Source: Cetorhinus maximus (lineage: Eukaryota). Taken from it: a DNA stretch of 64,000 nucleotides. A program made the position numbers and the translations under genes. Under the pieces are notes generated by a model. It did no database searches. It was not told the DNA's origin and worked only from the letters and a program-made list of their open reading frames with translations. Below are positions 268 to 54,402 of the stretch, piece by piece; within the stretch, counting starts at the first letter, position 1, and each line of letters starts with the position of its first letter. The stretch lies in the NCBI RefSeq assembly GCF_964194155.1, contig NC_135893.1, positions 78,120,001-78,184,000 of the forward strand. The letters are read 5' to 3'.

Positions 268-582
268 TTTTTTTATATTCGTTCATGGCAAGGCCAGCAT
301 TTGTTGCCCATCCCTAATTGCCCTTGAACTGAGGCCAGTTTGCTCAGTCATTTCAGAGGGCAGTTAAGAGTCAACCACCTTGCTGTGGATCTGGAGTCAT
401 ATGTAGGCCAGACCAGGTAAGAATGGCAGATTTCCTTTCCTAAATGACATTAATGAACCAGATGGGTTTTTTTTATGTTTGTTGTCATGGTCACCATTAC
501 TGAGACTGCTTTTACATTCCAGATTTTTTATTCATTGAATTTAAATTCCACTAGCTAACGTGGTGGGATTTGAACCCAGGTC
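268..582 (-). mobile_element. SINE-like internal-deletion derivative of the tRNA-headed LINE at 6637-9491 (head truncated)
   Basis: Reverse complement carries a B box (GGTTCAAATCC), matches the LINE 5' region (about 6705-6925) and joins directly to the LINE 3' tail AAGGGCAATTAGGGATGGGCAA. Confidence 0.85.
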
Positions 583-588
583 ATCAAG

Positions 589-785
589 ATAAAAGCAAAA
601 TAATGCGGATGCTGGAAATCTGAAATAAAAACAGAAAATGCTGGAAAAACTCAGCAGGTCTGGCAGCATCTGTGAAGAGAGGAACAGAGTTAACGTTTCG
701 AGCCCGTATGACCTTTCTCCAGAGCTAAAGAGAAGTAGAAATGTGATGAATGTTATACTGTTTAAGAAGGGGGTGGAGCAATGGA
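589..785 (-). mobile_element. Penelope-like element pseudo-LTR 3' fragment with degenerate hammerhead
   Basis: Reverse complement matches the end of the repeat at about 10540-10674; CTGGAGAAAGGTCATACGGGCTCGAAACGTTAACT at about 688-722. Confidence 0.8.
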
Positions 786-2304: not shown

Positions 2305-2988
2305 GGGCAGAATTTTTCCCTTGTTGGGTGGGCGCGCGTCCGACCGAACGGTGGTAATATAGTGCACGATGACGTCGGGCAAGCGTCCTGAAGTCATTGC
2401 GTACTCTTGCGATATTTTGCTCGGCAGGTACGCACGAGAGGTGGCCTGCCAACAATTAACAGGCCTATTAAGCCCTTAATCAATTAATTAAATGGAATTT
2501 TTCACTGCCCGTCCAACCATTCGGTTGGTGGACGGGTGAATAGACCATGTGGCCTTTGCATTTTTTGCGAAGCTTCATTATTGGGCGGGCTGAGGTTTCG
2601 ACCAGTGATTTAAAAACTCATTTTTAACATGTCCCTGCTCATGTGACTCTGTCAACTGAGGGGACGTGTTTCCCTTATTTTTCCATTCTTTATTTTTCAT
2701 GTTAAAAATCTTCAGCTCCCTGAGACAGCTCTGTGCCTTCAGGGATCTTTCACTGAGCGCACCCACACGCATGCGCTGACCTCCGCACCCCCCCCACCCC
2801 CCCACCCCCCCGACCCCCCTCCACCCCGGCAGCGCTGAGTGTTTCAGTGCGCGATTCACACTGGCGGCCCGTTAATTGGCCAGTCGGTGTGAAATCGGGG
2901 TCAGGGCCTGGTCACGGGCAGGGGACCGCTGCGCAGCCACTCCCAGGCTTGCCCGCTGGGCCCACCCAACGAGGGGAAAATCCTCCCC
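2305..2988 (+). mobile_element. Harbinger-type MITE (about 680 bp family)
   Basis: About 29-bp imperfect TIRs (GGGCAGAATTTTTCCCTTGTTGGGTGGGC / GCCCACCCAACGAGGGGAAAATCCTCCCC); flanks CAA/CGA; homologous to copies at 39386, 46221, 52652 and 55295. Confidence 0.85.
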
Positions 2989-5208
2989 CGAGCCATGTAT
3001 GAGCAAAAAGAAAGTAAAAGCCATAATCTTATGAGATTAAAGAAACTGCTATCCCTAAATGTATATGTCATGACTGGTGTATTTTACAGAACCCTCTTCT
3101 TATTGTGGGTTAACTTACCTTTGTTAGGATCTCCTCTCTACTAGGTTACTCATAATTGCTAAAGCCTCAAGCCTCAGGTCTACACCTCAGTATCTTGTTT
3201 AAAATTCTTCTGCCCATGTGTCCCTAAGCTTCCTTCTCTCTCTGTTCGCAGCCAGCTGAAGGGCTGTAATGATGGTCAGGATTCCCCGCTCCCGGTCACA
3301 GCGGGCACCATGGTGGGCGGGAGCAGAAAACATTGCGAGAAGGCCAAAAATCTGTTTTACAATGTCATAAAACCAGTTGAGGATTGTGGGCTGCAGCCTT
3401 CAATGGCAGGCCCTGTTTGCTGCCATCACACATCAGGAACAGAATTTCAATATATTTACATCTCGCTGTAGGAACTGCACTCCGGGAGTATCCCTCCACG
3501 CTGGAGCGCCCGGGCATGTCGGTGTGCAATTACAACAACGTGTTTCACAACAGCAAGCGACCTGCACCCGGCAACCTGCACTTCGCTTGTGACATTGAGG
3601 TTCATTAGCCTATCTTTCATTGCACAGCGCTCACACAAATCAGCACCAGGCTTCGCAGGCAGCACCACATCGCCTTTCAGGGAGGGTGCCAGACGCAAGT
3701 CTCTACCTATCAGACCAGCAGTAAGGAAGGCTTTTAATGGGCTGCAGGGTTAGGGCTGCACTGGGGGGGTAAGAGTGGGGACGTTTGCACTCAGACACAT
3801 GACTGGGGGGGTAGTGCAGAGAGTTAATGCCCTCAGTGCCAGGATGGGGAGAGAGTGTGTTACCGAATGACATAAGCCACTTGGGGCCAGAATGGGAGGA
3901 TCACTGAGTGAAGAAATGCTTCAATGTTGAGCTTACAAAGACTGTCCTTGTCCTAGTCCAGGGAGGGGGAGGGAATGTCAGTCCAGTCTCGGTCGTGCCC
4001 ATCATGTTGTGCGCAGGGTGTTTTTGTAACATATGCACCTCAGCCCGTGGGGTTTCTTGTATCACACCGGGCCACAGATGGCACACTCAGTCAGGGGAGG
4101 CATCTGCAGCCAACAGATGGGGAAAAGGCATTGTGGGAGTATCCGAAGGTGTCGGGCGGGGGGCGGTATATGTTTAACTGTGCAAGTGGCCTCAAGATGG
4201 GGAGGGGTGAGGTCCACATGGGACATAGACACATCCACCTCAAAATGTTTATGGGCTAACAAACGGATATCCACCACAATCATGATGGGATGAAGGAATG
4301 CAGGGGGAGGATTGAGAGGTCCTGGAGAGTGGGAAACCTGAGCATGGAGCTGCTCTGGGGTGATGGGAGAGGTTCCTACACTCACACAGGGAGGGTCCAA
4401 GCTGGTCTGGCAGTGAGAGCTCAGCACCACCATCTTCCAACCTGCAGTGATGGCGCAGTGCAAAATTAAAATGTGGAGAAGCTCTCCCAGTGAGGGCTCT
4501 GAGGGCCGATTGGAGTGCAGGGCCTTGCACTTGGGGGCCAATTAAAGGGGCACCCAACTGAACTGCGCATTCCCGAGCGAGGGGAGAGGCAGAGCTGAGT
4601 CACATTAGGAGCCTTTCAATGACAATGCAGGGAATCAGGAAAGTGAAGCAATGATGTGCGTTCATGTGAGACTAATCCCCCAGAGTGGCACTAATTGATC
4701 TCCTTGTATTAACCCCTTGTTTGCAACATGGAAATTCCCCGGAGTGATAATGAAACCCAGAGCAATTGGGTGACTGGACGAGTTTCAAACACATGTTATA
4801 ATTGTGGTGTTGGCAGCTTCACTGAAGAGAAGCCTCAGGCTGCCCTCAAATAATCTCAGTTCCCGACTAAACATTTACCCTCATGCTTATTCCAAAGAGT
4901 GCAGCATTAGAGGGCAGTGAGTGAGGCTCCCAGCACCTGGGCTGAAAGCAGCACATCCAAGCACCTGGCCAAAGCAATGTCCTAGCAGTCAGTCATGTAA
5001 AGGGGGGTATTGGGAGTGTGTGGGGAGATGCACCTTGAAATGCAACCCATGCTGGCCAGGATTTCAGGAGCGAGTAGTTGCCAACACTGGAAAAAAGCCC
5101 TTGGGCCCACACTCACTGATGAGTCCTTGACAGAAATAGGACCTTTGGAGGCTGATGCTGGCTCATGTCTGTTTTTCATTGATCTGCAGAGAGGAGACCA
5201 TCAGGAAG

Positions 5209-6636: not shown

Positions 6637-9491
6637 GGGGAGGGAGCGGCACAGTGGTATTGCTGCTTGTCTAGTAATCCAGAGATCCAGGGTAATGCTT
6701 TGGGGACCCGGGTTTGAATCCCTCCAGGGCAGATGGTGAAATATGAATTCAATAAAAATCTGGAATTGAAAGTCTGATGATGACCATGAAACCATTGTCA
6801 TAAAAACCCATCTGGTTCACTAATGCCCTTTAGGTAAGGAAATCTGCCATCCTGGCCTACATGTGACACTAGACTCACAGATGCGTGGTTGACTTTTAAC
6901 TGCCCTCTGAAATGACCTAACAAACCGATGTGTCAAACCACTAGAAAGCATATAAGGAATAAAACCAGGCTGACCATCCAGCATCAACCTAGGCAATGGA
7001 AACGACAACGGCAAACTCAGCCCTGTCGACCCTGCAAAATCCTCCTTACTAACATCTGGGGGCTAGTTCCAAAACTGGGAGAGCTGGCTCACAGACTAGT
7101 CAAGCAACAGCCTGACATAGTCATCCTCACAGAATCATACCTTACAGATAATATCCCAGGGACCACCATCACCATCCTTGGGTATGTCCTCTCCCACTGA
7201 CAGGACAGACCCAGCAGAGGTGGTGGCACAGTGGTATACAGTCAGGAGGGAGTTGCCCTGGGAGTCCTTAACTTCGACTCTGAACCCCATGAAGTTTCAT
7301 GGCATCAGGTCAAAGATGGACAACTATTACATACCACACCCCACCCCTCAGCTGATGAATCAGTGCCCCTCCATGTTGAACACCACTTGGAGGAAGCACT
7401 GAGGGTGGCCAGGGCGCAGAATGTACTCTGGGTGGGGGACTTCAATGTCCATCACCAAGAATGGCTCAGTAGCACCAGTACAGACCGAGCTGGCCGAGTC
7501 CTAAAGGACATAGCTGCTAGACTGGGTCTGCAGCAGGTGGTGAAGGAACCAACAAGAGGGAAAAATATACTTGACCTCATCCTCACCAACCTGCCTGCCG
7601 CAGATGCATCTGTCCATGACAGCATTGGTAGGAGTGACCACCGCACAGTAGTTGTGGAGGTAAAGCCCCGCCTTCACATTGAGGATACCCTCCATCATGT
7701 CGTGTGGCACTACCACCATGCCAAATGGGACAGATTTCGAACACATCTAGCAACTCAAGACTGGGCACCCATGAGGCACTGTGGGCCATCAGCAGCAGCA
7801 GAATTGTACTTGAACACAATCTGTACCTCATGGCCCAGCATATCCCCCACTCTACCATTACCATCAAGCCAGACAATCAACCCTGGTTCAATGAAGAGTG
7901 CAGGAGGGGATGCCAGCAGCAGCACCAGGCATACCTAAAAATGAGGTGTCAACCTGGTGAAGCTACAACACAGGACTACCTGTGTGCCAAACAGCATAAG
8001 CAGCAAGTGACAGACAGCTAAGCGATCCCACAACCAACGGATCAGATCTAAGCCCTCTGCAGTCCTGCCACATCCAGTTGTGAATGGTGGTGGACAATTA
8101 AAGAACTCACTGGAGGAGGAGGCTCCACAAATATTCACAACCTCAATGATGGAGGAGCCCAGCGCATCTGTGCAAAAGATAAGGCTGAAGCATTCACATA
8201 ATTTTTAGCCAGAAGTACCAAGTGAATAATCCACCTCGGCTTCCTCCAGAGGTCCCCAGCATCACAGATGCCAGTCTTCAGACAATTCAATTCACTCCAT
8301 GTGATATCAAGAAACAGCTGAAGGCACTGGATACTGCAAAGCCTATGGGCTCTGACAATATTCTGGCAATAGTACTGAAGACTTGTGCTCCAGAACTTTC
8401 TGCACCCCTAGCCAAGCTGTTCCAGTACAGCTACAACACTGGCATCTACCCAGGAATGTGGAAAATTGGCCAGGTATGTCCTGTACACAAAAAGCAGGAC
8501 AAATCCAACCCAGCCAATTACTGCTCCGTCAGTCTACTCTCGAATCTGTAAAGTAATGGAAGGGGTCATCAACAGTGCTATCAAATGGCACTTGCTTAGC
8601 AATAACCTGCTCACTGATGCTCAGTTTGGGTTCCGCCAGGGTCACTCAGCTCCTGACCTCAGTACAGCCTTGGTTCAAATATGGACAAAAGAGCTGAACT
8701 CCCGAGGTAAGGTGAGAGTGACTGCCCTTGACATGAAGGCCGCACTTGACCGAGTGTGGCATCAAGGAGGCCTCGCAAAACTGGAGTCAATGGGAATGAG
8801 GGGGAAAACTCTCCGCTGGTTAAACCTAGCACAAAGGAAGATGGTTGTGGTTGTTGGAGGCCAATCATCTCAGTCCCAGGACATCACTGCAGGAGTTCCT
8901 CAGGGTAGGAATCCTGCAGCGAGTAACTCACCGCGTGACTCCCCAAAGCCTGTCCACCATCTCCAAGACACAAGTCAAGTGTGTGTTGGAATGCTCTCCA
9001 CTTGCCTGGATGAGTGCAACTCCAGCAACACTCAAAAAGCTTAACACCAATTAGGACAAGGCAGCTTGTTTGATTGGCACCTAATCCACAAATATTCACT
9101 CCCTCCACCACCGACAGTAGCAGCAGTGTGTTCCACCTACAAGATGCACTGCAGGAACTCACCAAGCCTCCATAAACAGCACCCTCCAAACCCATGACCA
9201 CTACCATCTAGAAGGACAAGGGCAGCAGACATATGGAAACATCACCATCTGAAAGTTCCTCTCCAAGCCAGTCACCATCCTGACTTGGAAATATATCACC
9301 GTTCCTTCGCTGTCGTGGGTCAAAATCCTGGAACTCCCTCCCTAACAGCACTGTGGGTGTACTTACACCTCAGGGACTACAGCAGTTCAAGAAGGCAGCT
9401 CACCACCACCTTCTCAAGGGCAATTAGGGATGGGCAATAAATGCTGTTCTAGCCAGCGACGCCCACATCCCATGAATGAATTGAAAAAAAA
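6637..9491 (+). mobile_element. Non-LTR retrotransposon (CR1 group, single APE-RT ORF) with tRNA-derived 5' head; degenerate, RT core deleted
   Basis: APE motifs (TNIWGL, PDIVILTES, GDFNVH, LDLILTN, SDH); RT motifs (QFGFR, ALDMKAALDRVWH, GVPQG); tail ATGAATGAA plus oligo-A; TSD ATCCTCAG (6629-6636) / ATCTTCAG (9492-9499). Confidence 0.9.
6647..6721 (+). promoter_or_regulatory. tRNA-like internal Pol III promoter (A box and B box) at the LINE 5' end
   Basis: A box CGGCACAGTGG at 6647-6657; anticodon-like loop CTAGTAA at 6671-6677; B box GGTTTGAATCC at 6711-6721; sister copies have TGGCATAGTGG and GTTCGAATCC. Confidence 0.75.
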
Positions 9492-10230
9492 ATCTTCAGT
9501 GGGCTCATAGCTGCATGCCTTCAATCTGGCAAACGCTCCTCAAGAGATCCATCTCCAGCAATGGGACAATGCAATCTGTATAACATCGATGGTGAAACTG
9601 ATTGTACCTAAGAACATAAGAAATAGGAGCAGGAGTAGACCATTCGGCCCCTCGAGCCTGCTCCGCCATTCAATTAGATCATGGCTGATCCTCTTGTGTT
9701 TCGATTTCCACATTCCCATCTAACCCCGATAACCTATGATTCCTTTGCCTAACAAGAATCTATCTACCTGTGCCTTAAAAATATTTAATGACACCTCTTC
9801 CACCACCTACTGAGACAGAGAGTTCCAAAGTCACACAACACTCTGAGGAAAAAAATTCTCCTCATCTCTGTCCTAAAAGGGCGACACTTAATTTTAAAAC
9901 AGTGCCCCTAGTTCTGGACTCACCCACAAGAGGAAACGTCCCTTCTACATCCACCTTGTCAAGGCCGTTCAGGATCTTGTATACTTCAATCAAATCACCC
10001 CTCACTCTTCTAAACTCCAGTGGAAACAAGCCCAGTCTGTCCAACCTTTCCTCATAAGACAACACACTCATTCCAGATATCAATCTAGTAAACCTCCTCT
10101 GAACCACCTATAATGCATTTACATCCTTCCTTAAATAAGTAAACCAAAACTGCACATAGTATTCAAGGTGTGGTCTCACCAGTGCCCTGTATAACTGAAG
10201 CATAACATCCTTACTCTTCATTATTTCATT

Positions 10231-10674
10231 ATTTCCATTTTTTAAAAGTGTATTTCCATCCATTGTTTTATCTCTACCTTTTAGCCTATTTCGATCCCTT
10301 CCTCCCACCCCACCCTTGCTAGGGCTATCTGTCACTTGCTTGTCCTGCTTTCTACCCTTAATGTCATCATAGTACATCCCTCAGCTAATATCACCACCGT
10401 CAACACCCCTTTGTCCTTTTGTCTATGACATCTTTGGCAATCTCTTCTTTGCCTCCACCTATCACTGGCCCTCTATCCAGCTCTACCTGTCTCACCCCCC
10501 TCAACTAGCTTATATTTCACCTCATTTCTATATTTCTTAGTTCTGATGAAGAGTCATACGGACTCGAAATGTTAACTGTGTTCCTCTCTGCAGATGCTGT
10601 CAGACCTGCTGAGTTTTTCCAGCTACTTTTGTTTTTGTTTCAGATTTCCAGCATCAGCAGTATTTTGCTTTTAT
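10231..10674 (+). repeat. Penelope upstream pseudo-LTR
   Basis: Near-identical direct repeat of 13543-13987. Confidence 0.92.
10539..10577 (+). ncRNA. Minimal type I hammerhead ribozyme motif
   Basis: AGTT-CTGATGA-A-GAGTC-ATACG-GACTC-GAAA-TGTT-AACT: catalytic core, 5-bp stem II and stem I AGTT/AACT. Confidence 0.8.
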
Positions 10675-11319
10675 CTTAGTGTCTAATTGACTGCCACTTC
10701 TCATCCAGGAATGCCTACCTTGAAGGCATACTGGTCTTCTCTCCGACAGGATTTCTGCTTGTCTCTTTTGCCCTGTACACCTTCATTGCTTTCCACTTCT
10801 CTCCTGGTGTTTGACAAGCTGTTTACTAAAACTCACTTTCACAGCCATACTTCCTTCCTCAGTGACTGTCTCTGTCTCTGACTTACCCCACGTGGATTCC
10901 AACTGAAGTTCCATCCCTCATGTTTCGAACCCACCCAGGATTACAGGTATCTCCGGGACATACAATGCTCTTCGGACTGCTGTTCTCGTCGCATCCTGAG
11001 TTCCACACTCAGTGCCATGCACCGCCAAATGAACACATTCGACCTCTCCCTCCAGCAGCACCAACGCACCCTTTTTTTAAGCTGTCCCTGCCCCTAGTTT
11101 CATTTTATTCTTCGTCTCATCTGACGCCTCAACAAAAAACTTTGTCTCTTTCTTTCAGGTGCAAAGAAATGCAATCTGCAACAACTCATCGACACCAACA
11201 TCCATCCAGGACCCTCCACCCCTGCCCATCCCTCTGACCCCACCCCGTCTTCCAATCACAGCCCCGGCCGCGTATTCACTATACCCCCTGACCTTTCCCT
11301 CTCTGATGCTGAACATTCA

Positions 11320-13451
11320 GTGCTCAGCAAAGGACACAGTTTCATATCCTTACACCCTCATCTCAATGAATTTTGGGCTCGGCACGATGCTGAATTCTTC
11401 TTCTGTTGCCTTCGTCTTAATGCTCACTTCTTTGGGCAGGAGTCCTCTCCCTGTTCAACGGATCCTTTTACCCGCCTCCAATATTCTCCCTCCACCTGGA
11501 CCCCTCCCTCTGGATTCTTACCTGCTTTTGATCTTTTCATTGAGAACTGTCGGCATGACATTAGTCGTCTCAATTTCTCTGCTCCTCTCACCCATTCTAA
11601 CCTGTCTCTTTCTGAACTTGCTGCACTCCGTTCTCTCAGGTCCAACACTGGCTTTGTCAAAAAACCTGCTGACAAGGGTGGTGCTGTTATTGTCTGGCGC
11701 ATTGACCTCTACCTCACAGGGGCTGAGCGTCAACTCGCAGACACTTCCTCCTACCTCCCCCTAGACCATGACTCCACCACTGAACATCAAGCCATTGTTT
11801 CCAGGACTGTTACTGACATCATCTCCTCTGGAGATCTTCCCTCCACAGCTTCCAACCTGATAGTCTCCCAACCTCGGACGGCCCGCTTCTACCTCCTACC
11901 CAAAATCCACAAACAGGACTGTCCCGGCAGACCGATTGTGTCAGCCTGTTCCTGCCCCACGAAACTCATTTCTTGCTATCTTGACTCCATTCTATCTCCC
12001 CTTGTCCAGTCCCTTCCCACCTACATCCGTGATTCCTCTGACACCCTACATCATATCAACAATTTCCAGTTCCCTGGCCCCAACTGCCTCCTCTTCACCA
12101 TAGACGTCCAATCCCTCTACACCTCCATCCCCCACCGCGACGGTTTGAGGGCTCTCTGCTTCTTTCTTGAACAGAGGCCTGAACAATCCCCATCCACCAC
12201 CACTCTCCTCCGTCTGGCTGAACTTGTTCTCACACTGAACAATTTCTCCTTAAACTCCTCTCACTTCCTCCAAATAAAAGGTGTGGCTATGGGTACCCGC
12301 ATGGGCCCCAGATATGCCTGTCTCTTTATGGGGTATGTGGAACATTCCTTGTTCCAGTCCTACTCATGCCCCCTCCCACAACTCTTTCTCCGGTACATCG
12401 ATGACTGTTTCGGTGCTGCTTCATGTTCTTGTCTGGAGCTGGAAAAATTTTTTAAGTTTGCTTCCAATTTCCAACCCTCCATCATTTTCAAATGGTCCAT
12501 CACTGACTCTTCCCTTCCCTTCCTTGACCTCTCTGTCTCCATTTCTGGTGATAGACTGTCCACCAATATTCATTACAAGCCTACCAACCCCCACAGCTAC
12601 CTTGACCACAGCTCCTCACACCCTGCTTCCTGTAAGGACTCCATCCCATTCTCTCAGTTCCTTCACCTCCGTCGCAACTGTTCTGATGATGCCACTTTCA
12701 AAAATAGTTCCTCTGACATGTCCTCCTTCTTCCTTAACCGAGGCTTTCCGCTCACGGTGGTTGACAGGGCCCTCAACTGTGTTCGGCCCATCTCCTGCGC
12801 ATCCACCCTCACACCTTCCTCTCCCTCCCAGAACCATGATAGGACCCCCCTTGTCCTCACTTATCATCCCACCAGCCTCCGCATTCAAAGGATCATCCTC
12901 CACCATTTCCGCCAATTCCAGCATGATGCCACCACCAAACACATCTTCCCTTCACCCCCCCGGCGGAATTTCATGGGGATCGTTCCATCCAGGACACCCT
13001 GGTCCACTCCTCCATCACCCCCTACACCTCAACCCCCTCCCACAGCACCTTCCCATGCAACCACAGAAGGTGCAACACCTGCCCCTTTACTTCCCCCCTC
13101 CTCACTGTCCAAGGGCCCAAACACTCCTTTCAAGTGAAGCAGCATTTCACTTGCACTTCCCTCAATTGAGTCTACTGCATTCATTGCTCCCAATGCGGTC
13201 TCCTCTACATTGGAGAGACCAAACGCAGACTGGGTGACCACTTTGCGGAACACCTTCGGTCTGTCCGCAAGCATGACCCAGACCTCCCTGTCGCTTGCCA
13301 TTTCAACACACCACCCTGCTCTCATGCCCTTGGCCTGCTGCAATGTTCCAGTGAAGCTCAACGTAAACTGGAGGAGCAGCACCTCATCTTCCGACTATGC
13401 ACTTTACAGCCTTCCAGACTTAATACTGAGTTCAACAACTTCAGGTCATGA
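11320..13451 (+). pseudogene. Penelope RT + GIY-YIG endonuclease ORF (frameshift near 12960, stop near 13168; N-terminal part also broken)
   Basis: KPADKGGA, FYLLPKIHK, PGRPIVS, DVQSLYT, GVAMGT, RYIDD; then CNHRRCNTC linker, VYCIHC, LYIGETKRRL, EH and LNTEF in the shifted frame. Confidence 0.93.
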
Positions 13452-13542
13452 ACTGTCTCGTCCATCCCCACCCCCTTTCCGATCCCCCCTTTTCCAATAA
13501 TTTATTATTTTTTATTTTATATATATTTTTCTTTTCCCACCT

Positions 13543-13987
13543 ATTTCCATTATTTTTAAATGTATTTCCATCCATTGTTTTATCTCTACCTTTTAGCCTA
13601 TTTCGATCCCTTCCTCCCACCCCACTCCCACTAGGGCTATCTGTCACTTGCTTGTCCTGCTTTCTACCCTTAATGTCACCATTAGCACATTCCTCAGCTA
13701 ATATCACCACCGTCAACACCCCTTTGTCCTTTTGTCTATGACATCTTTGGCAATCTCTTCTTTGTCTCCACCTATCACTGGCCCTCTATCCAGCTCTACC
13801 TGTCCCACCCGCCTCAACCAGCTTATAGTCCACCTCATTTCTATATTTCTTAGTTCTGATGCAGAGTCTTATGGACTCGAAATATTAACTGTGTTCTTCT
13901 CCGCAGATGCTGTCAGACCTGCTGAGTTTTTCCAGCTACTTTTGTTTTTGTTTCAGATTTCCAGCATCCGCAGTATTTTGCTTTTAT
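13543..13987 (+). repeat. Penelope downstream pseudo-LTR
   Basis: Direct repeat of 10231-10674; contains a mutated hammerhead (CTGATGC...GAAATATT) at 13852-13890. Confidence 0.92.
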
Positions 13988-16280
13988 CCTTACTTTTATG
14001 TTCAATCCCTACTCATAATAAAGGATAATATTTCATTAGCAGCCTTAATTACATGCTGTACCTGCATGCTAACTTTTTGTGACGCATGTTCCAGAACACC
14101 TAGATCCCTCTGCACCTCAGAATTATGCAGCCGTTCTCCATTTAAGTAATACTCTGCTTTTCTGTTCTTCCTGCCAAAGTGAACAACTTCACATTTTCCC
14201 ACATTAAACTCCATTTGCCAGATCTTTACCCACTAACTCAACCTGTCTATATCCATCTGCGACCTCTTCATGTCCTCTTCACAACATACTTTCCTACCTA
14301 TCTTTGCGTTATCTGCAAATTTAGCTACCATGTCTTCACTCCCCTCATCTAAGTCATTGATGTAAATTATAAAAAGTTGAGGCTCCAGCACAGACTCCTG
14401 TGGGACTCCACTCATCACATCCTGCCAATCATAAAAAGACCCATTTATGCATACTCTCTGCTTTCTGCCAGCCAGCCAATCTTCTTTGCATACTAATATG
14501 TTACCCCCTACACCATGCGCTTTTATTTTTCGTAATAACCTTTGATGTGGCACCTTATCAAATGCCTTCTGGAACTCCAAGTACAGTACGTCTACAGACT
14601 CCCCTTTATCCACTGTGCATGTTACTCCTTCAAAAAACTCCAATAAATTGGTTAAACATGATTCTCCTTTCACAAAACCATGCTGATTCTTTCCGATTGC
14701 CTTGAGCTCTTCTAAGTGCCCAGCTATAACCTCCTTAATGATCGATTCTAACAACTTCCCCATGGCAGACGTCAAGCTAACTGGTCTATAGTTTCCTGTT
14801 TTCTGCCTCCCTCCCTTCTTGAATAGAGGGGTTATATTTGCTACTTTCCAACCTGATGGAACCTTTCCAGAAACTAGCGAATTTTGGAAAATTAACACCA
14901 GCGACTACCTCATTGGCCACCTCTTTTAAGACCCTAGGATGTAGTCCATTGGGACCCGGATTTGTGCCAGCCTGCAGCTCCATCAATTTGCTCAGTACCA
15001 TTTCCCTAGTGACTTCAATTTCACCAAGTTCCTCTCTCCCTTTCACCTCCTGATTTGCAACTATTACTTTTTATTTTTTGTATCCTCTATAGTGAACACA
15101 AAAGCAAAACATTTGTTCATTTCTTCCACCATTTCCTTATTAACTCCCCACTGTCACTCGATAGAGGACCAACACTCACTTTACTCACTTTTTTCCTTTT
15201 TAAATACCTGTAGAAACTCTTGCTCTCCATTTTAACATTTCTGGCTACCTTCCTCCCGTACTCGAATTTCTTGCTCCTGATTAACCTTTTCTCTGCCGTT
15301 CTTTATATTCTGTCCAATCATCTGTCCTGCCACTCATCTTTGCAGATTTATATGCTTTTTCCTTAAGTTTGACGCTTTCCTTAACATCTCTAGTTAACCA
15401 CAGATGGTGGGTCCTCCCTTTAGAAGTTTTCTTTATAATAAGAATGTACTTATTCTGAATACTCTGAAATATACTCTTAAATGTCTGCCACTGCTTCTCT
15501 ATTGATCTATCCCCTAGCCTAGTTTCCCAGTTCACTTCAGCTAGCTCAGCTTTCATCCCCACGTAGTTGCCCTTATTTAAGTTTAAGATACTAGTCTTAG
15601 CCCAACTCTCCCCCCTTTCAAACTGGATGTAAAATTCACCAATGCCCTCTTTGATTAACAGTGCTACCCCTTCACCTTTACATGGCTTCCTATTCTTCTT
15701 GAATGTCATGGACCCTTCAATATTAAGGACCCAATCATTGTCATCCTGCAGCCACGTCTCCGTAATTGCTATCAGATCATATTTATTTATTTCAATGTGG
15801 GCCATCAATTCATTTACTTTGTTATGAATGCTATGTGCATTCAGATAGAGAGCCTTCAGTTTTGTCTTTTTGTTACCTTTGTAATATCTAGTCTTGACTG
15901 TTGATGTATTCTTAGGTATTTTTCTTTCTGTCCCTTTCTGCCATTCTCTGACCCTGATTTCTCATATTACTATTTTGCTCTCCTGTCTTGACTCTACACC
16001 TTGAATTGCTACCTCTACCCAAACTTGATCCTTCACCCCTCTTGTTTAGTTTTAGATTGCTGACACTTGGGCCAAGTCAGCTGTGGGTGTGCATCTATTC
16101 TGAGATGACTCAATCCTCTGTGCCGCCTTCTTCTCTATCACATTAACGTCTGACACTCTCAGTTAGGGATGTTGGCCTGCTTTTATCCTCACCTTACAGT
16201 GCATGTGGACCATCTGTGGATGACGACGTTCAACCACTTGCGTGACAGACATTAAAATGCCTCCTCTTTAAGACACACAT

Positions 16281-17815
16281 TAGAACCATAGAACCATAGA
16301 GCACTACAGCACAGAAAACAGGCCATTCAGCCCTTCTAGTCTGTGCTGAAATATTATTCCGCTAATCCCATTGACCTGCACCCAGTCCATAACCCTCTAG
16401 ACCTGTCCTATCCATGTATCTATCCAACTTATTCTTAAAACTTAAGAGTGAGCCCGCATTTACCACGTCAGATGGTAGCTCGTTCCACACTCTCACCACT
16501 CTCTGAGTGAAGAAGTTCCCCCTAATTTTTCCCCTAAACCTTTCCCCTTTCACCTTAAAGCCATGTCCTCTCGTGTTTATCTCTCCTAATCTAAGTGGAA
16601 AGAGCCTACTCGCATTTACTCTGTCTATACCCCTCATAATTTTGTAAACTTCCATCAAATCTCCCCTCATCCTTCTACGCTCCAAGGAATAAAGTCCTAA
16701 CCTGTTTAATCTTTCCCTGTAACTCAACTCCTTAAGACCCGGCAACGTCCTAGTAAATCTTCTCTGCACTCTTTCAATCTTACTGATATCCTTCCTGTAG
16801 TTAGGTGACCAGAACTGCACACAATACTCCAAATTTGGCCTCACCAATGTCTTATACAACCTCACCATAACATCCCAACTCCTATACTCAATACTTTGAT
16901 TTATGAAGGCCAGTATGCCAAAAGCTTTCTTTACAACCCTGTCTACCTGTGACGCCACTTTCAGGGAATTATGTATCTGAACTCCCAGATCCCTTTGTTC
17001 CTCCGCACTCCTCAGTGCCCTACCATTTACTGTGTATGTCCTACCTTGGTTTGTCCTTCCAAAATGCAACACCTCACACTTTTCTGCATTAAATTCCATC
17101 TGCCATTTTCTGGCCCATTTTTCCAGTTGGTCCAGATCCCTCTGCAAGCTTTGAAAGCCTTCCTCGCTGTCCACAACGCCTCCAATCTTAGTGTCATCAG
17201 CAAACTTGCTGATCCAATTTACCACTTTATCATCCAAATCATTGATATAGACAACAAACAACAATGGTCCCAGCACAGATCCCTGAGGCACACCACTAGT
17301 CACAGACCTCCAGTCTGAGAAGCAATCAACCACTACCACTCTCTGTCTTCTCCCACACTGCCAATTTCGAATCCAGTTTACAACCTCTCCATGGATACCA
17401 AGTGTCTGAGCCTTCTGAACTAACCTCCCATGTGGGACCTTGTCAAAGGCCTTACTAAAGTCCATGTAGACAACATCCACAGCCTTTCCTTCATCTACTT
17501 TCTTGGTAATCTCCTCGAAAAACTCTACAAGGTTCGTTAAACACGACCTACCACGCACAAAGCCATGCTGACTATCCTTAATCAGCCCTTGGCTGTCCAA
17601 ATAATTATATATCCAATCTCTCAGAACACCTTCCAATAATTTACCTACTACTGATATTAGGTTCACTGGCCTGTAATTACCTGGTTTATTTTTGGAGCCT
17701 TTTTTAAACAACGGAACAACATGAGCTACCCTCCAATCCTCCGGCACCTCACCCGTGGCGAAGGACATTTTAAATATTTCTGCCATGGCCCCTGCAATTT
17801 CTACACTAGTCTCCT
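16281..17815 (-). mobile_element. Young CR1 LINE, 5'-truncated
   Basis: (TGGTTCTA)n 3' tail at 16281-16300; uninterrupted RT reading frame; short ACATT at both flanks. Confidence 0.95.
16362..17786 (-). CDS. CR1 ORF2 C-terminal half (reverse transcriptase), 474 codons open, 5'-truncated retrocopy
   Basis: [55 protein letters not shown]. Confidence 0.85.
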   Translation of the reverse strand: MAEIFKMSFATGEVPEDWRVAHVVPLFKKGSKNKPGNYRPVNLISVVGKLLEGVLRDWIYNYLDSQGLIKDSQHGFVRGRSCLTNLVEFFEEITKKVDEGKAVDVVYMDFSKAFDKVPHGRLVQKAQTLGIHGEVVNWIRNWQCGRRQRVVVVDCFSDWRSVTSGVPQGSVLGPLLFVVYINDLDDKVVNWISKFADDTKIGGVVDSEEGFQSLQRDLDQLEKWARKWQMEFNAEKCEVLHFGRTNQGRTYTVNGRALRSAEEQRDLGVQIHNSLKVASQVDRVVKKAFGILAFINQSIEYRSWDVMVRLYKTLVRPNLEYCVQFWSPNYRKDISKIERVQRRFTRTLPGLKELSYRERLNRLGLYSLERRRMRGDLMEVYKIMRGIDRVNASRLFPLRLGEINTRGHGFKVKGERFRGKIRGNFFTQRVVRVWNELPSDVVNAGSLLSFKNKLDRYMDRTGLEGYGLGAGQWD

Positions 17816-18807
17816 CCTACATTGTTCCCTCATGGCCAAACCCGGCCCTTGCGAACTCCAAAATTCACAAACGCCATGAAGCCCTCAAGGTCACGAGTCA
17901 TTGCTAATAAAGAGCACACTTCAGCATCATTACATCCTCGTTCTTATCCCATTGTCCCCATCGCCATTGTTTAACGCTACGATGTGCACTTCCAGAGAAT
18001 GCTCAAAGGCTCTACTGAAGGCCAAAAATCACCATTTGCAACGAGCAACACTCATCTGGGCGAGTGTTTAGGTGATGGGACGGAGAGCACTGCATCCCAA
18101 CATTGTGACGAGAGCCTTGTGGCTGCAACCCAGACAATTACAGGTTGAGAAACACTCATGGTTGTAGGTTTGTAGGGAAATGATGTGGCTGAGGGGGACA
18201 GAGCTTCAGGACCTTGAGGTGGCAAATTGCTCCCACTCATTGGGAGCTTAGCAGATGTACACTCGGAAAGTCGGAAATGCGGTCGGCTGACAGGAGCGTA
18301 CACGAGCTCTGAGCATGGGTCATAGCATGAAAGCCCTGCAGGATGCTGGGAGCACATGGAGTTGCACGACTTATAACCCTTCCCCATGCGTTAACACATC
18401 TCTCCTTGTACACTGCACCTTCACCTTTCAAGAGTGCAGACGAGATAGGAGAACACCTCTGCCTCAATCTTACACAGCCAAGAATAAAGATGACATGACC
18501 CTGCAAAGCAACTGTACGAGGTTCATTCCACAAGCACACTTAACATTAAAGTCGTGGCATCACTGATGTTGAGAATGATGTGCAAAAGGGACACACACTG
18601 TGGTGATATGGAAGCACACAACATAGACAAGAGGCCCATGATTGTGATACCTGCGATAAGTGGGGAGGGACCATGGGTATCTCACCTGATAGACAGCAAC
18701 ACATCTCATCATAAAAAAGAGGCTTACACAAGAGGGAGTGTGAAATGGGTGTGATTCTATTTACATTTGTGTACATTATATACATGTTGTGAACACCCAT
18801 GCCACCA

Positions 18808-21545: not shown

Positions 21546-21624
21546 TCTCAAGGGCAATTAGGGACGGGCAATAAATGTTGGCCTTGCCAGTGATGCCCAC
21601 ATCCCGTGAATGAATAAACAAAAA
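21546..21624 (+). mobile_element. Isolated 3' tail of the tRNA-headed LINE/SINE family
   Basis: Matches 9413-9491. Confidence 0.85.
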
Positions 21625-36352: not shown

Positions 36353-36830
36353 TTTTTATTCATTCTTGGGATGTGAGCATCATTGGCTAGGCCAGCATTT
36401 ATTGTCCATCCCTAATTGCCCTTGAGAAGGGGGTGGTGAGCTGCCTTTTTGAACCGCTGTAGTCTATGTGGCATAGTTACACCCACAGTGCTATTAGGGA
36501 GGCCGTCCAGTTTGAAACAACTGAGTGGCTTGCTAGGCCATTTCAGAGGGCATTTAAGAGTCAACCACATTGCTGTGGGTCTGGAGTCACATGTAGACCA
36601 GGCCAGGCCAGGCCAGGTAAGGATGTCAGATTTCCTTCCCTAAAGAGCATGAGTGAACCAGATGGGTTTTTATGGCGATTGATTCATGGTCATCATTAGA
36701 CTTTTAATTCCAGGTTTTTTATTCAATAATAATGCCACCATCTGCTGTGGTGCGATTTGAACCTGGGTTCCCAGAGTATTACGCTGGATCTCTGGTCCAG
36801 TGAAAAATGCCACTATGCCACCCCCTCCCC
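36353..36830 (-). mobile_element. Complete SINE-like deletion derivative of the tRNA-headed LINE
   Basis: 5' end GGGGAGGGGGTGGCATAGTGG aligns with 6637; B box GGTTCAAATC; joins to the last about 155 nt of the LINE. Confidence 0.9.
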
Positions 36831-53534: not shown

Positions 53535-54402
53535 GGAACATAGGGCTTAGGAGCAGGAGGTGGCCATTTGGTCCTCCTGTCTGCTCCATCATTCAATAAG
53601 ATCATGGCTGATCTGAATGTGGTCTCAGGGCCATTTTCCTGTCTGCACCTAACCTGCGCCCCTCCCCCCAAATAACCCTCGACTCCCTTGTTTAAAGGGC
53701 ATTTAAGAATCAACCACATTGCTGTGGGTCAGGAGTCACATGTAAGCCAGACCAGGTAAGGAAGGCAGATTTCCTTCCCTAAAGGACATTAGTGAACCAG
53801 ATGGGTTTTTATGACAATTGGCAATGGTTTCATGGTCATCAGCAGCCTTTTAATTCCAGAATTTAAAAAAAATTGAATTCAAACCCCACCATCTGCCGTG
53901 GTGGGATTCGAACAGTCCCCAGAGCATTACCCTGGGTCTCTGCATTACTAATCCAGTGACAAAACCACTGTGCCCCTAGTTCCAGTGTCCCCGGCAAGTG
54001 GAAACATCCTCTCGGTATCTACCCTATCAAGTCCCCTCAGGATCTTATATGTTTCAGTAAGATCATCTCTGATTCTTCTAAACTCCGATGGGTACAGGCC
54101 CAACCTGTTCAACCTTTCTTCATAAGATAAACCCCTCATCCCAGGAATGAGTCGAGTGAACCTTCTCTGAACTGCTTCTAACACAATTATATCTTTTTTC
54201 AAATAAGGAGACCAAAACCGTACACAGTATTCCAGATGTGGTCTCACCAAGGCTCCGTACAGCTGCAGTAAAATTTCCCTACGTTTATGTTCCATTCCCC
54301 TTGCAATAAACACCAACATTCAACTTCCCTTTCTAACCACTTGCTGCACCTGCATACTAACATTTTGTGATTCATGTAGCAGGACACCCAGATCCCTCTG
54401 TA
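53535..54402 (-). mobile_element. CR1 3' fragment interrupted by a SINE piece
   Basis: ORF 53948-54319 LVRPHLEYCVRFWSPY...VQRRFTRLIPG; tail at about 53535-53692. Confidence 0.88.
53693..53975 (-). mobile_element. tRNA head plus 5' region of the tRNA-headed LINE/SINE family (tail missing)
   Basis: GGCACAGTGG...CTGGATTAGTAATGCAG-AGA-CCCAGGGTAATGCTCTGGG...GTTCGAATCCC, colinear with about 6648-6910. Confidence 0.88.

Follow-up and report, generated by a model that had tools for sequence, protein, structure and literature searches.

The 64-kb stretch of the 4.0-Gb genome of Cetorhinus maximus that was analysed here (G000:C15:78120001-78184000), referred to as the window, carries a dead copy of the retrotransposon Zenon, a LINE whose full-length form opens with a head containing A and B boxes, probably has RNA polymerase III (Pol III) as the enzyme that transcribes its whole length, and is likely translated without an ordinary AUG. 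Textbooks divide such elements into coding LINEs, transcribed by Pol II, and non-coding SINEs, transcribed by Pol III. If the proposed reading is true, a very abundant vertebrate LINE retained its tRNA promoter in both sharks and rays and purged its coding sequence of Pol III terminators, which would break this division. It would also be a long mRNA made naturally by Pol III and translated from a cap-independent, AUG-less start, and would open a path of a single step from LINE to SINE in which the body of the SINE is the leader of its parent. The Zenon family itself is known; the undescribed part is its tRNA-headed architecture, no description of the shark head having been found in the literature searched (outside Repbase, Dfam and subscription journals). 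Should Pol III transcription and AUG-less translation be shown, Zenon would come near a new category.

The element and its parts are located in the window as follows.

6637..9492, + strand: decayed, near-full-length copy of the Zenon LINE; identity to the family majority is 90.6% over positions 1-2319 and 89.4% over 2699-3289.
6637..6732, + strand: tRNA-derived head, in which the A box (6647-6657) is followed by an anticodon-like arm (6666-6682), an inserted hairpin (6686-6704) and the B box (6711-6721).
6733..6912, + strand: conserved leader or body, common to the SINEs; not a Deu domain and without a match in Rfam.
6913..6943, + strand: candidate translation-start element, decayed in the window copy; AUG-GCC-UAG overlaps a hairpin of anticodon-like form whose loop is CUAGCAA, and a GCU complementary to that loop follows in frame.
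6940..9427, + strand: single ORF, broken, that comprises a basic N-terminal extension, the APE endonuclease (beginning at about 7045) and an RT lacking about 380 nt at 8902/8908, with its stop at 9425-9427.
9428..9492, + strand: stem-loop of the 3' UTR; AATAAA lies at 9436-9441 and the A tail at 9484-9492.

The element is real; it is a decayed copy, with an internal deletion, of a single-ORF APE-RT LINE of 3.3 kb. In the broken frames of the window copy, the Pfam domains APE (PF14529, E 8e-13) and RT (PF00078, E 8e-10) are found downstream of the head; at about 90% identity to the family majority and without about 380 nt of its RT, this copy is therefore dead. The features first noticed in the letters, namely an A-box-like motif, an anticodon-like arm (loop CTAGTAA), an extra hairpin and a B-box-like motif, are all present at 6647-6721, and the expected APE-RT frame without an ORF1 was recovered as well. 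The description of the element as protein-coding fails for the window copy, which carries stops, frameshifts and the deletion at 8902/8908, and holds for the family majority, in which a single frame of 975 codons is open.

An endonuclease-start query returned 9770 candidates in the genome, 40 of which were scored, and the family majority (3289 nt) was built from 20 long copies and the window copy, 21 sequences in all, chosen by score. Copies differ from this majority by 4-8%, and the first in-frame Met of its ORF is codon 290. The 110 best RT matches, 79-100% identical, include no intact copy, and the longest open frame in them is 777 aa. For the 5' end, 60 loci from two queries were reduced to 57 by removal of two duplicates and one non-match, all of them selected for reaching the ORF start, and 35 of the 57 come within 45 nt of the first base of the head. 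No adjacent upstream flank is shared in the 595 pairs formed by these 35 copies, and the three flank pairs that do share sequence (of 1596 among all 57 copies) represent one other repeat, joined at different positions of the element. Copies that reach the head and have unrelated flanks indicate that the head is the 5' end and that no ORF1 lies upstream of it.

The placement of the head within the transposing unit is thus borne out by these copies, by their flanks and by published consensuses, and not by the target-site duplication (TSD) on which the original prediction had relied. The 8-nt repeat ATCCTCAG/ATCTTCAG is present around the window copy, but at chance level, as 12.8% of mismatched flank pairs reach its score. 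In a set of 28 elements that retain both ends, the true pairs of flanks have a mean score of 3.64 versus 3.70 for 756 mismatched pairs, and with these elements at the null level the TSD was dropped as evidence for the unit; short TSDs could have been lost because the copies are 4-8% diverged. Some loci (L033, L035 and L036, also L007, L009 and L011) combine a head and body 11-22% from the majority with an ORF 5-7% from it and show dogfish-type head features. Heads so much more diverged than the ORF suggest head exchange between subfamilies or with SINEs.

Zenon has been reported in elasmobranchs as an element without ORF1 and with a poly-A tail (Stuart et al., 2026, PMC13343379), and the supplement of that paper holds seven elasmobranch consensuses from five species (CarCar, ScyCan, RhiTyp and HypSab Zenon-1; SquAca Zenon-1 to -3). 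All seven, from sharks and a ray, open with A box, arm, B box and body, as judged by eye over their first 400 characters; in the hagfish and coelacanth Zenon entries, also by eye, the head is absent from the first 400 characters. CarCar_Zenon-1, with 3288 characters against the 3289 nt of our majority, is near-identical to it by eye over the first 400 nt. This 5' match to published consensuses means that the family is already known, and on its sequence the window family is elasmobranch Zenon, catalogued in 2026 (PMC13343379), which answers a question that the original prediction was unable to decide. The two agree in their single APE-RT ORF, in the absence of ORF1, which is a known and ordinary trait of Zenon (PMC13343379), and in the poly-A tail, an A5 run being found in 39 of 50 tails of the window family. 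Within the parts of that source available, the main text mentions no tRNA, promoter or pol III and the supplement no tRNA, and the head, the T-run avoidance and the missing AUG are new relative to it, as it describes none of them; the available part of the whale shark preprint likewise mentions no tRNA. Protein homologues of the family are single-ORF APE-RT proteins (best 46% identical). In a quick tree of 52 rows (the 50 best of 81 matches, the query and the CR1 of the window), the family falls into a clade of support 98 with lepidopteran LINEs, apart from CR1, no row being labelled Zenon.

The tRNA-like character of the head emerges from comparison with the genome's own tRNAs, of which seven anticodon types were aligned to it. 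The best colinear match is tRNA-Thr(AGT), with 48/74 positions identical and one 20-nt insert (z 6.4), and in this alignment the A and B boxes stand in tRNA register; tRNA-Gln(CTG) equals it on score (z 6.7) through an identical anticodon stem. The alignments support a tRNA origin of the Zenon head. The notion of a tRNA-Thr-like head consequently stands for tRNA homology in register, with Thr(AGT) as one of two candidate isotypes, since Gln(CTG) ties with it. ARAGORN reported no tRNA in the 64-kb window, and the Rfam tRNA model matched one of 16 head loci, at 22.7 bits and below the 29-bit cut-off. In single copies the boxes are decayed, an exact A box being retained in 8 and a relaxed B box in 21 of 35. 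In the dogfish (SquAca) consensus the inserted hairpin, which corresponds to window positions 6686-6704, looks by eye like a second anticodon arm, and the insert may accordingly be a tandem duplication. A 9-bp pairing between the head and a loop of the body was discarded, as 18 of 200 shuffles gave an equally good one.

The window contains further copies of the family, which illustrate its deletion forms.

36353..36830, - strand: copy shortened by an internal deletion, so that family positions 1-324 run straight on into 3139-3288.
53696..53974, - strand: head-plus-body copy (family 12-287), no tail detected.
282..582, - strand: 5'-truncated SINE form, family 69-304 joined to the tail.
21546..21621, + strand: tail-only copy, from comparison with the family majority.

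Alignment to the family majority confirms the earlier claim that the copy at 36353-36830 begins at family position 1. Elsewhere in the genome, a head query yielded 29 other loci, comprising five long forms, 19 SINEs and five loci without a detected tail. The SINE form at these 19 loci is about 350 nt long and consists of head, body and the last ~75 nt of the LINE. At least three different junctions occur among SINE forms, the commonest directly before the AUG at family position 293. The local SINEs look like head-plus-tail deletion forms of the Zenon LINE. The proposal of a SINE-LINE hybrid is right in that the head sits on a coding LINE; the local SINEs look like products of the LINE, and the hybridization may have run in either direction.

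Vertebrate Pol III terminates at four or more T, and the sense strand of the 3289-nt majority is poor in such runs. It has 6 T3 runs where 21.4 are expected, no T4 run where 4.2 are expected (single copies carry 0-5), and 2 windows with four T in five positions where 22.4 are expected, none of 500 shuffles being as low; runs of A, C and G are at normal levels. Within the ORF, 4 T3 runs compare with 12.8 in synonymous shuffles that keep protein and codon usage fixed (0/600 as low), the absence of T4 alone being not significant on this measure (P 0.06-0.09). The ratio of observed to expected T3 runs is 0.23 in the Zenon ORF, against 0.55-1.51 in 46 related ORFs (those of 80 metagenome relatives with an ORF of at least 600 aa) and 1.03-1.22 in controls taken from the same genome (a young CR1 and a further RT ORF); here a majority of 21 score-selected copies is set against single-sequence controls, and of 6 CR1 loci only 2 provided an ORF that could be used. 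Phe makes up 1.8% of the Zenon ORF, below all 58 matches listed (2.3-7.4%). At the 3' end, 9 of 39 A tails follow a TTTT, as compared with 59 of 1759 background A runs (3.4%), and this T run could be the product of a palindrome-driven mutation hotspot. T-run depletion that is specific to strand and base is the mark that Pol III transcription would predict, and it lends indirect support to our view that Zenon is probably driven by Pol III from its tRNA-type head.

The Zenon ORF is without a usable in-frame AUG. Its basic N-terminal extension ahead of the endonuclease resembles that of Met-initiated relatives and carries no Met. A hairpin with a canonical anticodon loop occupies family positions 294-308, and a complementary GCU follows in frame at 326. 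This combination of hairpin and codon arose in 2 of 3000 shuffled windows, for a pattern that was defined after it had been seen. Loop and GCUA are invariant by eye in the main consensuses of the five species, as given in the supplement, and neighbouring bases vary. By eye, GCU and the conserved coding block lie 18, 18, 18, 15 and 17 nt apart, in frame in four of the five species, the SquAca-1 consensus being one base short after GCU. Length changes in multiples of three just after GCU make up 8/14, versus 4/21 in the leader (same genome). In 27 of 57 copies an A replaces the G of GCU, which may reflect CpG decay and a query that itself carries this A. Leader folding energy was rejected as support, as it is no better than that of shuffles (z -0.07 to -0.82), and no IRES family in Rfam matched any of 16 loci, five of them long forms, at E<=5. 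These patterns are compatible with a start by mimicry of tRNA and codon like that of the dicistrovirus PKI domain, to which we assign somewhat less than an even chance; readthrough of AUG-GCC-UAG is a weaker candidate, and so, taken together, are other routes.

The same bases can be read as AUG-GCC-UAG-CAA, with the AUG in strong context and in frame with the ORF, and readthrough is therefore a real rival. This alternative concerns the translation step only: the RNA would still be a Pol III product, and the ORF would be opened by readthrough of AUG-GCC-UAG-CAA, or from a +1-frame AUG at 348 with a frameshift, without a tRNA-mimic pseudoknot. It is a possible but rather doubtful account. The AUG at 293 lies in the ORF frame two codons ahead of the UAG, conservation among copies is 96-100% over positions 289-294, the spacer keeps the same length in 30 of 32 copies and in four of the five published species consensuses, and the main SINE junction immediately precedes this AUG. 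Yet in the whale shark consensus the spacer, by eye, is one base shorter, which breaks the readthrough frame and keeps the frame after GCU, and GCUA is invariant across the species consensuses while its neighbours vary; moreover, an uncapped RNA would still require ribosome recruitment. Mimicry has a weak point of its own, as the pairing of loop and GCU amounts to only 3-4 bases versus the 4-5 needed in the PKI of IAPV.

Transcription by Pol II from an element that has captured the 5' end of a SINE would account for the same architecture differently. The head would be a passenger, or would act through an effect of TFIIIC on Pol II or host read-through, and the poverty in T would reflect avoidance of U-rich processing or silencing signals. 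LINEs are generally taken as Pol II transcripts (PMC5786205, in the part available), and AATAAA in the 3' UTR, the poly-A tail, the strong-context AUG at family position 293 and the P of 0.06-0.09 for T4 absence alone all fit such a transcript. However, neither the other LINEs of this genome nor the 46 relatives show a comparable loss of T runs, the A and B boxes are retained by eye in the published consensuses of five species while the sequence between them varies, and nine upstream AUGs before position 293 make a poor fit to cap-dependent scanning; we consider this explanation unlikely. Far more improbable is that the head-bearing long copies are repeated template-switch chimeras of SINE RNA and a LINE with its real 5' end elsewhere. 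The excess of SINE over long forms (19 versus 5 of 29 head loci) and heads that are 13-22% diverged next to ORFs at 5-7%, which suggest head exchange, would suit it. It is already largely refuted, as the flanks revealed no other 5' end (of 1596 pairs, 3 are alike, all through one other repeat), the head opens the independent consensuses of five species in the published supplement, and T-run avoidance extends through the ORF itself.

On the preferred Pol III reading, TFIIIC and Pol III would start transcription from the head, and termination would occur at or beyond the tail, possibly with AAUAAA-dependent polyadenylation. Ribosomes would enter at the hairpin (family positions 290-330), target-primed reverse transcription, established LINE chemistry, would proceed from the 3' stem-loop or A tail, and a single internal deletion would be enough to make a complete SINE of such an element. 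The composite proposal, an elasmobranch autonomous retrotransposon that is a 3.3-kb protein-coding Pol III gene with uncapped RNA, an AUG-less start resembling that of an IGR IRES, and single deletions leading to SINEs, is put forward tentatively. As its simplest history, we infer that, before sharks diverged from rays, a Zenon LINE captured the 5' end of a tRNA or SINE, and that repeated internal deletions then gave rise to SINEs. Among the metagenome relatives, none of 80 loci has similarity to head or body, and ARAGORN found no head-type tRNA in the 60 of the 80 that were searched, its one hit being an unrelated tRNA-Ile. None of the 11 relatives with a full endonuclease start has a B box upstream, and 9 of the 11 have a Met before the endonuclease.

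Several described systems share parts of this architecture, as far as the available portions of their sources show. Abundant derivatives that join 5' and 3' parts by internal deletion are also known from Persaeus, a SIDE, and lepidopteran Zenon; Persaeus, which carries the 5' end of Zenon, lacks both tRNA homology and a Pol III promoter, whereas the shark deletion product has a tRNA head and is a SINE (PMC6740152). Bipartite SINEs from RTE and Vingi LINEs likewise consist of a head, a LINE 5' part and a LINE 3' part (Kojima, 2018, PMC5786205), but there the head was added to a deleted, non-coding form, and in shark Zenon it sits on a coding element. The chondrichthyan SacSINE1 (a Deu-SINE) and CmiSINE similarly combine a tRNA head with a LINE-derived tail (PMC5499810). 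Their bodies are of the Deu or CORE type and their tail is that of L2-2_CM, and the Zenon SINE is set apart from them by their descriptions and by the Deu alignment (PMC5499810, PMC7245038). Identity of the Zenon body with the Deu domain of SacSINE1 was rejected, as no likeness was visible by eye to that alignment (PMC7245038 supplement), and the 21-nt Deu motif has no match in the window at 3 mismatches. The IGR IRES of dicistroviruses also places an anticodon-like loop in pairing with an in-frame codon before an AUG-less ORF (PMC4132737, PMC3894237), and IRESs of this type in non-LTR elements have been raised as hypothetical (PMC3894237). Zenon differs from it in having only 3-4 pairs, in that PKII/PKIII, SLIV and SLV are not shown in it, and in the lack of an Rfam IRES match. 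Finally, the polyadenylated Pol III SINEs B2, Dip and Ves have AATAAA, a T run and an A tail, as do 9 of 39 Zenon tails; they are short and non-coding, and in Zenon the T run is found in a minority of copies (PMC8466645).

Other repeats and sequences were noted alongside this family. Pieces of a canonical CR1-like RT (PF00078) at window 14095-17816 on the - strand, about 30% identical to the Zenon ORF, served as a control for T runs; the stretch 16900-17400 has at least 39 other copies at 98-99% identity, which marks a young family. At window 11125-13137 (+ strand), an open frame of 670 aa, which matches RT weakly (E 1e-6), is flanked by repeats at 10230-10675 and 13542-13988 that are 94% identical; it resembles a Penelope-like element, no GIY-YIG match having been found in it. 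Another abundant repeat lies directly upstream of Zenon or SINE copies (L014, L023, L241, L054 and window 585-750) and meets them at varied truncation points through its T-rich end, possibly owing to a target preference. The Zenon body motif had no match in viral contigs. Contigs of sequencing runs assigned to several organisms, presumed RNA runs among them, do contain the family, as detected through a stretch outside the head. A stretch of a protein of Heptranchias perlo annotated as 'anoctamin-7-like' (P0070) is 67% identical to the RT over 34% of the query, so that the Zenon family is also present in a hexanchiform shark, the protein being hit probably through a mis-annotated exon. At G000:C35:9027627-9130055, a tandem array with a period of ~2.8 kb holds more than 70 matches to a tRNA-Gln motif.
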